Source: a virus
Taxonomy: Duplodnaviria > Caudoviricetes
IMG/VR virus record: IMGVR_UViG_3300042198_000101
Coordinates: 1-40,502 of that record
Direction: 5' to 3' (one strand)
Length of the DNA: 40,502 nucleotides
Under the pieces are notes generated by a model that saw only the letters and a program-made list of their open reading frames with translations, did not search any database and had not been told where the DNA came from. Below are positions 10,208 through 12,584 of this stretch, one piece after another; within the stretch, counting starts at the first letter, position 1, and each line of letters opens with the position of its first letter. The translations under genes were made by a program, and so were the position numbers.

Positions 10208-10675
10208 CTAGGCTGCCTTGTTCCAGCGCTTTTCAGCGAGGAGGCGGGCGGGGTTCACGACCGGGGCTTGCTCCCGGTGATCCTTCATCGATCGGGCAAA
10301 GCCGAACGTGGCGAACACGTTCACCAGCGAGATGAAAAAACAAGCCGGCCAGAGCGCCCAATCAGGGGCCAGCGCATATTCGGCGTTGAGGTGTTCCAAA
10401 CCGAGGTGGTTCAGGTTGGCCTCGATGGCGCCGAAACCTACGCCGAGAATGCCGGCGATGATCGCCGTGGCGTAGTTCTTCGTTTCCCATGCTTCCATCA
10501 CGCGCGCCACCGCGCGGGACAGGAGGAACACGATCACCACCATGGCGGTGGTGAGGAGCGTTCCGGGGAGCCAACCCTTCGACCAGAAGCCGAGGGTGGC
10601 GGTCACAACTGAGAGCCCAACGAAGGCAAGGCAGGCTTGCTGTTCAAGCGGGCGGTCTTCGGTATACTTGGTCAT
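10208..10675 (-). CDS. Polytopic (about 4 TM) membrane protein, moron-like
   Basis: AAAGGA SD before ATG 10675; 155 aa; opposite strand to the late genes. Confidence 0.75.
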   Translation of the reverse strand: MTKYTEDRPLEQQACLAFVGLSVVTATLGFWSKGWLPGTLLTTAMVVIVFLLSRAVARVMEAWETKNYATAIIAGILGVGFGAIEANLNHLGLEHLNAEYALAPDWALWPACFFISLVNVFATFGFARSMKDHREQAPVVNPARLLAEKRWNKAA

Positions 10676-10776
10676 AGCGCGGTCCTTTCGCGTTAGGCCC
10701 GGTTGAGGGTTGCCGCCTCGCCGGGCCGTTCTGATTGTCAAACATCTCTAGGGGGCGCGAATTTCGACCCCCTCAT

Positions 10777-10810
10777 AAAAAGGCCCCGACACTCGGGGGA
10801 GGGTCGGGGC
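10777..10810 (-). terminator. Rho-independent terminator of the putative sRNA
   Basis: Minus strand GCCCCGAC...GTCGGGGC-C-TTTTT. Confidence 0.75.
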
Positions 10811-10998
10811 GCTTTCTTCAGGCGATTTGGAAGCTAGAGCGGTGTTCTGGGGTCCGGTATTCTGCCCTGTCGTATTCTGGTGCCCTTTTCCATCTTGGCT
10901 CCCTTGCGGGGGCGGTATGGGTTCCGGTTTTCTGGGTCCGATGTTCTGCCCTGCCGTGGTTCCTGTGATCCGCTCTAGCTACCAAATCGTCTGCCTAT
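10777..10998 (-). ncRNA. Putative structured small RNA, ~220 nt, unknown family
   Basis: Own promoter and terminator; 24-bp inverted repeat 10819-10842/10970-10993 (22/24 match); duplicated ~30-nt motif; central GCAA-tetraloop hairpin. Confidence 0.6.
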
Positions 10999-11004
10999 GA
11001 GAGC

Positions 11005-11033
11005 AATATGGCGGCAATCCACCGACATGGCAA
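11005..11033 (-). promoter_or_regulatory. Leftward sigma70-type promoter for the putative sRNA
   Basis: Minus strand TTGCCA-17 bp-CATATT. Confidence 0.6.
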
Positions 11034-11089
11034 GCCACCAGAAAGCCACCACTGATCACAAGTTCGTGATTGCCACCAGCTTGCCACCA
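11034..11089. promoter_or_regulatory. Four GCCACCA direct repeats, putative RHH operator
   Basis: At 11034, 11045, 11072, 11083 (two pairs with 11-bp period) around an ATCAC-N6-GTGAT palindrome. Confidence 0.6.
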
Positions 11090-11109
11090 CACTGGCCATG
11101 GGTTAATAT
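11081..11109 (+). promoter_or_regulatory. Rightward sigma70-type promoter for the RHH gene
   Basis: TTGCCA-17 bp-TAATAT. Confidence 0.6.
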
Positions 11110-11133: not shown

Positions 11134-11400
11134 ATGAGCAAAGCAAAACCCCGCACCGGCGACAGGCATGTCGGGACCGCCAAAACGATCCGTTTCACTG
11201 ATGAGCAGGCGGCCCGCCTGGACGCGCTGAAGGATCGGACGGGGGGAACCTATGCCGATGCTATCGACGCCGCTGCCAGGGCCTTGCTGGGCTCAAATGA
11301 CAGGCGCGCCGACCTGGCCCTCGAATTGCGCCGTCTGGCCGATCAGATCGAGGGCGGCAAACCCCAACACGATGGGACACGCCGCCGCGAAAAGCCTTGA
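11134..11400 (+). CDS. Ribbon-helix-helix (CopG/Arc-like) DNA-binding protein
   Basis: GGGAGA SD; KTIRFTDEQAARLDALKDRTGGTYADAIDAA fits strand-helix-Gly turn-helix. Confidence 0.7.
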   Translation: MSKAKPRTGDRHVGTAKTIRFTDEQAARLDALKDRTGGTYADAIDAAARALLGSNDRRADLALELRRLADQIEGGKPQHDGTRRREKP

Positions 11401-11553
11401 AATCATGCGCATGGCTATTTGTCCCATCCTTCCGATAGACCGTTGATCCGTCACACTTTGCCCTGTCCCCTAGGGACTGCCAGCGCGTTTTTAGCGACCT
11501 GTTTAATAACAGATTTTCGCTCAATTGTCCCACTGGCAGGGTCGGCTGGGACA
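11373..11553. other. attP: core 11466-11482 (tRNA-Glu-like 3' end) with flanking TGTCCCA arm-type sites
   Basis: TCCCCTAGGGACTGCCA resembles the T-arm/acceptor/CCA end of tRNA-Glu; TGTCCCA or its complement at 11373, 11420, 11526, 11547. Confidence 0.7.
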
Positions 11554-12584
11554 GAAACCCCAAAAACCGCCCCCAAGGCATCGCTCGCCATGCCCGCCCT
11601 TTGCGCCTTGGCCGTGTAGGTCGCCGCCTGCTGATGCGTGGCGTGGCCAAGCACGGCCATAATCTGATGGGGCGTGCATCCCGCCTCAGCCATCCGGGCC
11701 GCCGCGGCCTTCCTGAGCCCGTGGAACGAGCACGCAGGGTCAACGCCTGCCTCGGCGCACCATTCCCGAAACTTGTTCTGCAGGCCCTTGCCGCTGGCAA
11801 AGGGGTGGCCATAGGCCGTTTCCAGCCAGGTCAGGCCCTTGCCCTGCCAAGCGTCCAGCGCCTCACGCAGCGGCGGGACAATCGGAATATCGACATGCAC
11901 CGGGCGCCGGTTGGCGTTCTTCGACTGCGTGAACCGCAAGCGCCCGTCCCGCTCATGCGGGCGTCCGATCCGCACCGCGTCGCTGATGCGCTGCGCCGTG
12001 TAAAGCCCGATCGCATAGGCTGTGCGGGCCTGCGTGCCGAGCGGGTGCTTGGCCTCATAGGCCATGCAATCCTCAGCGGTCCATGTCCTGTGCCCCTCCG
12101 TGACGTTGGGCTTGCGCCGGATGCCTGCCGTGGGATCCGTCATCACCAGACCGTCATCGCAGGCCAGCCGATAGACGGCACGCAGGGCGGCGAGAAATTC
12201 TTTTCCCTGCGCATAGGTTCGCACTTTCACCCCTAGCCGGATCGTCATTGGATCGATCACCGCCGGCAGGTGGCCGAACTTCTCCACCAGCGCCTCTAGC
12301 AGCCGCTCACGCGGGCGTTGTGTCAGCTTGCGGTCCAGCGCCCGAAAATCCCGGCTCGTCAGGTAATGGCGCACGATGTAGGCGAATGTACCCCGCCCCG
12401 GCCCTGTGCGGCGCGTGGGGGCGGCTTCGCCATTGCGGGCAGCGAAATAGGCCAGCGCAAAAGCCTCGCTGCCTGGGTCACCATGCAGGCGCACCTTTGG
12501 CTTACCCGGCGCGCGGAAATACCACCGCACATTGCCCCGCGCGTCCACGTCGCGCGTGATGCCCTTCCATTCGATCGACGCCAT
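11451..12584 (-). CDS. int: Tyrosine recombinase / phage integrase
   Basis: TAQRISD (R), FHGLRK (HxxR), LGH, ATYT (Y); start at ATG 12584 or coupled TTG 12596. Confidence 0.95.
   Translation of the reverse strand: MASIEWKGITRDVDARGNVRWYFRAPGKPKVRLHGDPGSEAFALAYFAARNGEAAPTRRTGPGRGTFAYIVRHYLTSRDFRALDRKLTQRPRERLLEALVEKFGHLPAVIDPMTIRLGVKVRTYAQGKEFLAALRAVYRLACDDGLVMTDPTAGIRRKPNVTEGHRTWTAEDCMAYEAKHPLGTQARTAYAIGLYTAQRISDAVRIGRPHERDGRLRFTQSKNANRRPVHVDIPIVPPLREALDAWQGKGLTWLETAYGHPFASGKGLQNKFREWCAEAGVDPACSFHGLRKAAAARMAEAGCTPHQIMAVLGHATHQQAATYTAKAQRAGMASDALGAVFGVSVPADPASGTIERKSVIKQVAKNALAVPRGQGKV

Follow-up and report, generated by a model that had tools for sequence, protein, structure and literature searches.

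The window, by which we mean the whole 40,502-nucleotide stretch analysed, is the record of a temperate phage that is 55% complete. Tail, endolysin and spanin genes on the plus strand are followed by a unit transcribed leftward, a small plus-strand gene for an RHH-like protein, an att site and a tyrosine integrase gene; the features of this region are collected in Table 1. The membrane protein encoded by the last gene of the leftward unit belongs to no family in Pfam, PHROG or PADLOC, and the neighbouring genes show no match to known families of defence or anti-defence. The att core agrees with tRNA-Glu(TTC) exactly in three of five genomes of the family of G001, an alphaproteobacterium whose prophage carries a homologue described below, and with one mismatch in the other two. 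The likely host family, perhaps Hyphomonadaceae, was assigned from the att core alone. GGGACA-type repeats on both sides of the core (window 11380–11560) are likely integrase arm sites.

Table 1. Features of the leftward operon and its surroundings in the window
Feature	Position	Strand	Remarks
155-aa four-TM membrane protein gene	10208..10675	-	last gene of the operon
rrn-type boxA TGTTTGACAAT	10734..10744	-	downstream of the RNA terminator
Intrinsic terminator, 8-bp GC stem + 5 U	10777..10810	-	in MFE; predicted 3' end
Closing stem, 3' strand	10819..10842	-	
19-codon ORF, rare AGA/AUA codons	10834..10893	-	not conserved; judged incidental
3' U-poor arm	10843..10889	-	sites at 10880, 10865, 10850; 15-nt period
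Central hairpin, CCC-GCAA-GGG core	10890..10920	-	in MFE; structural turn
5' U-poor arm	10921..10969	-	CAGAAYA-type sites at 10949 and 10935
Closing stem, 5' strand	10970..10993	-	pairs with 10842–10819
Promoter TTGCCA-17-CATATT, sigma70-type	11005..11033	-	score 9/12; +1 inferred near 10998
Four TGGTGGC direct repeats	11040..11089	-	starts 11089, 11078, 11051, 11040; kept in 4/4 aligned relatives
Small RHH-like regulator	11134..11400	+	divergent; promoter-like site 11081–11109
att core	11466..11482	+	tRNA-Glu(TTC) 3' end; inside integrase 3' end

A promoter scan gave three sites in 2.2 kb, as against 0.2 in shuffled sequence, and the promoter of the leftward unit aligns without gaps with that of four related contigs (L143, L144, L145 and L147), all of which lack the RNA considered here. 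The TGGTGGC repeats are likely the operator to which the divergent RHH protein would bind. The boxA motif sits 230–250 nt before the 16S rRNA in three of three genomes of the family, and this host-family form, TGTTTGA(C/A)AW, precedes cargo genes in the window, in L009–L029 and in L143–L147. Its presence suggests that the operon may borrow NusB/NusE antitermination. In relatives without the RNA, boxA lies within about 7 nt after +1; in the window, these two are separated by the inserted RNA with its terminator. This arrangement points to a discrete transcript of about 220 nt (10998–10777), with read-through alone reaching the membrane-protein gene. That gene and its boxA–hairpin leader, a mobile module, are also present in another phage context in L009–L029, facing a conserved small gene.

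The initial annotation had described the interval as a structured non-coding RNA running from promoter to terminator, and its reading of the letters was borne out. The promoter and terminator are present, 22 of the 24 closing-stem pairs are formed (two mismatches), the stem encloses a loop of 127 nt with only six U, the direct repeat is 26/31 identical with one gap, and all five SCAGAANA sites (Table 1) were recovered. The stem is the sole 24-bp inverted repeat in the window (at most three mismatches, gap of 60–250 nt), and equally U-poor 127-nt windows number 14 among 80,750 on both strands, every one of them at this loop. CAGAA occurs five times, compared with a mean of 0.54 in shuffles (p 5e-5), and the folding z of the 257-nt region is −4.4. 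The Rfam comparison that had been proposed gave no match to a known family at the gathering level; at E<=10 there were eight matches, terminator-like or trivial.

Three lineages of the RNA were found, labelled W (the window), H (contig L031 and prophage L086) and K (G046). To W belong the window itself, contig L006 with an identical copy, and close variants from 8 of the 22 sequencing runs listed. None of the listed runs holding it is an RNA run, which bears on expression neither way. H was reached through an RHH homologue of 40% identity in L031, and then in L129 and in L086, the prophage of G001; K was found by blastn from H (E 1e-15). A model built without K (R1) scores G046 at 89.7 bits, while a model of H and K only (R3) finds W first, at 35.1 bits and E 1e-8, with the next match at 12.1. 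In each lineage the RNA is preceded by a promoter that diverges from a small RHH/HTH gene and followed by a gene for a membrane protein; K adjoins a muramidase gene. In L031 (2989–4137), three consecutive RHH-like small genes precede tRNA-Gly at the prophage end, one of them fused to a T5orf172/MUG113 domain. The first operon cargo upstream of H, in both L031 and L086, is a peptide of about 28 aa with a conserved NPYFGRKCFR end.

The family is rare, occurring in 2 of 262 host-family genomes, both times in prophage-like regions. It is missing from 20 of 21 loci of the membrane gene, from 8 of 9 integrase loci and from all five true RHH relatives, five further RHH matches having been dropped as chance matches of 20 residues. 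The RNA of H varies at a single base (99% identical) beside downstream membrane proteins that are only 29% identical, and in run X12 a foreign sequence joins exactly at the first base of the stem (10993); the RNA is therefore a cassette. It is a swappable cargo of the leftward operon, which diverges from an RHH/HTH gene between the lysis genes and att and which in relatives is occupied by self-cleaving ribozymes and small genes.

Wider searches added no member. Blastn of W against phages gave two chance matches of 22 nt, and blastn of K against plasmids none. Pattern scans yielded 1 real match of 4, 2 of 7, 1 of 43, 1 of 43 and 2 of 48 (both matches of this last scan being known contigs), and nothing new; a pattern search of 35 of 64 database parts gave 119 loci, none of which passed the architecture filter, and model R2 made no full-length match in 100 of these. 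A looser pattern matched 75 of the 262 genomes, with none of 30 examined loci passing the filter. Blastn of W against 401 genomes of the order returned nothing but also missed G001, which holds H, and is uninformative on absence; model R2 had no match in 240 genomes, a set that contained no positive control. No description of the family was found in Rfam 15 or in the published papers searched. The motif was absent from the searched supplements of Fremin 2023 (PMC10690425), whose large supplements may list the RNA as a candidate.

The closing stem measures 22–26 bp in W, H and K. The initial annotation had proposed looking for covariation in homologues, and it is there: in a sequence-only alignment the W and H stems are in register over 22 pairs, of which 8 are changed on both sides. 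None of 500 shuffles did as well, and slid controls were 33–47% paired. MAFFT lost this register after trimming of the flanks; it runs gap-free from the conserved ACCGGACC block. With K added, in an alignment fitted to the model, double-sided changes rise to 12 of 22 pairs. The stems of H and K contain G·U pairs, which point to RNA and not DNA, and the positions of their two 1x1 mismatches coincide. In L086 a stem G·U is turned to A-U, and in variant X5 the A·C mismatch of W is repaired; in X15 one pair is broken (10840). We conclude that the closing stem is, on this comparative evidence, kept as structure across the three lineages. Covariation in the stem, recovery of W by a model made without it, variation in the number of repeat units and the lack of an Rfam match all agree with the view of a structured non-coding RNA, and we are highly confident that W is a real RNA gene of this kind.

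The loops of the three lineages are 121–127 nt long with 5–10% U. The W–H similarity score is 99, compared with 52±6 in shuffles (0 of 2000 as high), the 3' arm being the best-conserved block, while 2 of 2000 shuffles equalled the W–K similarity. The word repeated in these loops is RGAAYA, mostly CAGAAYA, spaced 13–16 nt apart within each arm, apart from one 30-nt gap in K that spans a degenerate GAU site; its enrichment in W, H and K has p values of 0.0004, 0.004 and 0.0002. The 20 RGAA sites in the loops are predicted to be mostly unpaired (0.54–0.98, with one exception at 0.37). The initial annotation is supported in its two equivalent single-stranded arms on a closing stem, but each arm carries the word two or three times rather than presenting a single site. 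K includes the sites AAAGAACA, CCGGAACA, CAGGAAUA and CCCGAUAA, a set that reduces the core to a few purine-rich letters at constant intervals, a pattern more in keeping with recognition by a protein than with a 7-bp seed. Conservation of the motif is weakly sampled, because there are only three lineages and two of them are about 70% alike.

The W variants are single contigs of depth 2–6, taken among the matches listed. In X7 (one contig, depth 4.6) each arm has gained one unit, of 14 nt on the 5' side and 15 nt on the 3' side. Among the matches listed, the CAGAA core is altered once, in X11, where the fifth site is degraded, and position 6 of the motif toggles among C, U and A; A to G at position 2 is also seen. 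The central hairpin keeps its place and not its sequence. The GNRA loop described earlier is present in W and in its MFE but does not define the family, the loops being GCAA in W and of UNCG type in H (UCCG) and K (UUCG); among hairpin changes in W variants, four preserve or restore pairing and two disrupt it or leave it unrepaired. W and H also have an inner helix of 3 bp, CGG/CCG (p~0.55), with a possible UGA/UCA counterpart in K that is absent from the predicted ensemble. The six GGA words are likewise present in the W loop and not kept in the homologues, ANGGA counts being 2, 0 and 0 in W, H and K. The accompanying CsrB-like reading of these words is not supported, as CsrA (PF02599) was detected in none of five genomes of the likely host family (controls detected in 3 of 14).

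Three other readings of the loop were rejected. Protein coding with P/A-E-Y/H repeats fails because the frames differ by arm and lineage, and a U-poor RNA lacks stops anyway. The W hairpin presumably resembles a Type I-C CRISPR repeat, but mimicry of such repeats was set aside because the hairpin sequence is not conserved. A T-box-like trap of tRNA-Gln(CUG) was also tried: the pattern matched eight loci in five genomes, none of them tRNA-Gln.

The stem of K has a type III hammerhead directly behind it (E 5.9e-5, below the gathering score); no ribozyme was found near W or H. In the window, past the terminator stem, 10760–10783 on the minus strand reads C-UUUUU-AUGAG..CGAAA, a weak resemblance to a decayed hammerhead core in the spot where K has its intact-looking one. 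The same operon type carries HDV-like and type II hammerhead ribozymes in L143 (2269–2338 and 2044–2120, minus strand) and L144 (2269–2338 and 1985–2060, minus strand), where the HDV-like match (below gathering) and the hammerhead (above gathering) flank a small ORF; the ends they would make would suit circularisation by RtcB. Upstream of K, at about 1655–1750 of L303 (minus strand), lies a second candidate RNA of 94 nt that has no Rfam match; it has a closing stem, a central hairpin, five GAC(G/A) words and 11 U. According to Perreault et al. (PMC3088659), hammerheads cluster near prophage integrases, and in Agrobacterium ardA, an anti-restriction gene, is flanked by three such ribozymes in a region ordered tail, ardA, marR, integrase.

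We think it somewhat probable that the RNA is a trans-acting sponge of one type or the other, for a protein or for an sRNA. Our leading reading, held tentatively, is that it is a multivalent decoy that, on phage entry or induction, titrates a single RNA-binding protein of the host, which may be a nuclease or sensor active in defence; both the protein nature of the partner and its part in defence are guesses. Transcription would start at 10998 and end at the terminator, upstream of boxA. The RHH protein would repress it in a lysogen, so that naive cells would see a burst of RNA. The closing stem would protect the ends and the low U content would confer resistance to U-preferring RNases, while the two unpaired arms of repeated CAGAAYA sites would bind the host protein. 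In H, RNase III may cut the RNA out of a longer transcript, and in K the hammerhead may free it.

This decoy reading is favoured because a short purine word recurs at fixed spacing with variable spacers and expandable copy number, and also because the ends are sealed, U is low and the accessory operon is linked to a repressor. The slot occupied by the RNA is a cargo operon, which again speaks for a decoy, as do the unit gain in X7, like the repeat expansion of pseudo-ToxI (PMC3475682), and the hammerhead-flanked ardA in the comparable Agrobacterium prophage region (PMC3088659). Against it count the broken pair in X15, the degraded fifth site in X11, the register lost by MAFFT, the small number of lineages and the lack of defence-family matches among the neighbouring genes. 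No candidate protein came to light: besides the negative result for CsrA, ToxN was found in none of 262 genomes, a search in which the controls were silent too, and Hfq is present in five of five family genomes without enrichment of its ARN motif in the RNA.

The main rival, which we consider unlikely although better placed than those that follow, is a multivalent sponge that traps a host Hfq-dependent sRNA by base pairing to a seed UGUUCUG or UAUUCUG, much as AgvB traps GcvB (PMC4104026) and CrfA of Caulobacter traps SisA-D (PMC12559287). The presence of Hfq suits this rival, and the C/A-rich, U-poor sites resemble the CACAACA target mimic of AgvB (PMC4104026). Toggling between C and U at motif position 6 preserves wobble pairing with UGUUCUG, as does the A to G change at position 2, which favours base pairing over a protein decoy. 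Nevertheless, the K sites diverge at pairing positions, and no convincing partner emerged among alpha-r8, 6S, 16S and some tRNAs: in ten alpha-r8/suhB matches the core is of CGUUUCCUCCC type or missing, with no specific pairing to the repeated site, a conserved UUCUG is found in none of five host 6S RNAs, and 16S has one 7-nt match. Likeness to AgvB and AsxR extends to the C/A-rich sites, the Hfq-bearing host and, for AgvB, a moron-type location in the prophage, and likeness to CrfA to the first two of these (PMC4104026 and PMC12559287). In contrast, AgvB-type RNAs have 51–60 nt and one site, whereas the RNA here has about 220 nt and 4–7 sites.

It is improbable that the RNA acts in cis, as a leader or processing element of the membrane gene, be it an RNase III substrate, a put-like antiterminator or an mRNA stabiliser. 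It does precede a membrane gene of its own operon in three of three lineages, the operon carries boxA and ribozymes, and the stem of about 24 bp with 1x1 mismatches fits the size of RNase III substrates. However, most relatives have the same promoter and gene without the RNA, in W the terminator cuts the RNA off ahead of boxA, the downstream proteins are unrelated across lineages, and the repeated sites are left unexplained.

Slimmer still is the chance of a trans-acting multi-seed sRNA aimed at mRNAs, or of an RNA freed by ribozymes, possibly circular, that has some separate function. A closing stem that brings both ends together, the type III hammerhead just behind the stem of K and the ribozyme pairs of L143 and L144 in the same operon would accord with release, but W and H have no ribozyme nearby, and Perreault et al. 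did not detect circles from such clusters (PMC3088659). Seeds rich in A and poor in U are weak partners for ribosome-binding sites, and complementary sites do not cluster anywhere in the phage.

It is very unlikely that the 19-codon ORF is a minigene that sequesters tRNAs, as CreT and lambda bar do, and starves the cell of tRNA-Arg(UCU) and tRNA-Ile2. CreT acts through consecutive AUA or AGA codons (PMC8501985). The ORF contains three AGA, two AUA and one CGA codons, whereas seven phage genes with 4690 codons together contain three AGA and eight AUA, and the AAGGGAG noted in the initial annotation as a possible SD is there. The peptide itself is not conserved: neither H nor K has an AUG at that place, K has a stop in frame, X7 and X15 (two of eight close variants) carry frameshifts, and the SD is changed to AAGGGGG or similar in six of the seven variants that span it. 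The SD is also paired within the hairpin, and the CAGAAUA motif accounts for the rare codons. Unlike the CreT and bar minigenes, then, SD, AUG and early rare codons are not conserved here, and the dual function once proposed for RNA and peptide is not supported. Least likely of all is an element that acts as DNA, whether a MITE, a cruciform, iterons or a site of recombination. Although terminal inverted repeats, internal direct repeats and cassette-like mobility recall one, the MITE-like scattered repeat that was looked for proved to be a single copy with family members in 2 of 262 host-family genomes, the composition is strongly strand-biased, the stem has G·U pairs and diverges with covariation where a transposase would require conserved inverted repeats, and the att arm repeats are located elsewhere.

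Among known systems, the RNA would work like pseudo-ToxI, like CsrB and CrcZ or like AgvB and CrfA. ToxI repeats are pseudoknots of about 36 nt, and expansion of repeat copy number, as in ToxI, was found in X7. The pseudo-ToxI of phage PhiTE (PMC3475682) is likewise a non-coding phage repeat RNA with expandable units and a decoy logic; units here have 14–15 nt and are enclosed by a long stem, and no ToxI match was obtained from Rfam at gathering or at E<=10. CsrB, RsmY, RsmZ and CrcZ share with the family many short purine words in A-rich unpaired RNA. The CsrB unit is CAGGA(U/C/A)G, from which CAGAAYA differs by two purine changes; the core here is GAA, whereas that of CsrB is GGA in hairpin loops, and the RNA here is phage-borne with a long closing stem, CsrA having been detected in none of five genomes of the likely host family. 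Unlike CrcZ-type Hfq sponges, W, H and K contain AANAANAA 0, 0 and 0 times, ARN4m1 is not above shuffles, and the test for enrichment of Hfq ARN motifs gave p values of 0.95, 0.12 and 0.43. The likeness to 6S RNA proposed earlier is not supported; closing stem, central unpaired region and approximate length are shared, but there is no RF00013 match, the arms are about 48 nt each and not a promoter-sized bubble, and host 6S RNAs (156–160 nt) lack CAGAA.

RNA anti-CRISPRs (Racr; PMC10651486) are also small phage RNAs with a promoter in front, carried by an accessory operon that is linked to a regulator; in contrast to these, no CRISPR-DR family was among the eight Rfam matches at E<=10, and the W hairpin is not kept in H or K. 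The ribozyme-punctuated prophage operons of PMC3088659 occupy the same type of region, from structural genes to regulator and integrase, and match the hammerheads of K, L143 and L144, but the cargo described for them consists of protein genes such as ardA, whereas here it is a non-coding RNA. As distinct from retron or DRT non-coding RNAs, no RT was found among 61 ORFs (PHROGs) and 27 (Pfam) of the 55% complete record.

The data describe a small, covariation-supported and real family of phage non-coding RNAs, apparently undescribed, for which the decoy model is testable. Only few phage RNAs are known as decoys or sponges. Since the repeated site is clear, copy-number variants exist in nature and the operon is defined, the partner can be fished directly and site mutants tested. 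A bolder proposal, which we hold to be unlikely, is that a stem-sealed RNA array neutralising an alphaproteobacterial anti-phage nuclease or sensor that reads RGAAYA would be a third kind of RNA counter-defence, following pseudo-ToxI and Racr. If so, it would be tuned by adding units of 14–15 nt, swapped as a cassette between phages and excised, through RNase III or a hammerhead ribozyme, from an operon resembling acr-aca, and the RNA would be usable as bait for that defence system. The ribozyme- and boxA-bearing operon beside att carries RNA besides protein cargo, and is a place in which to seek more such RNAs.
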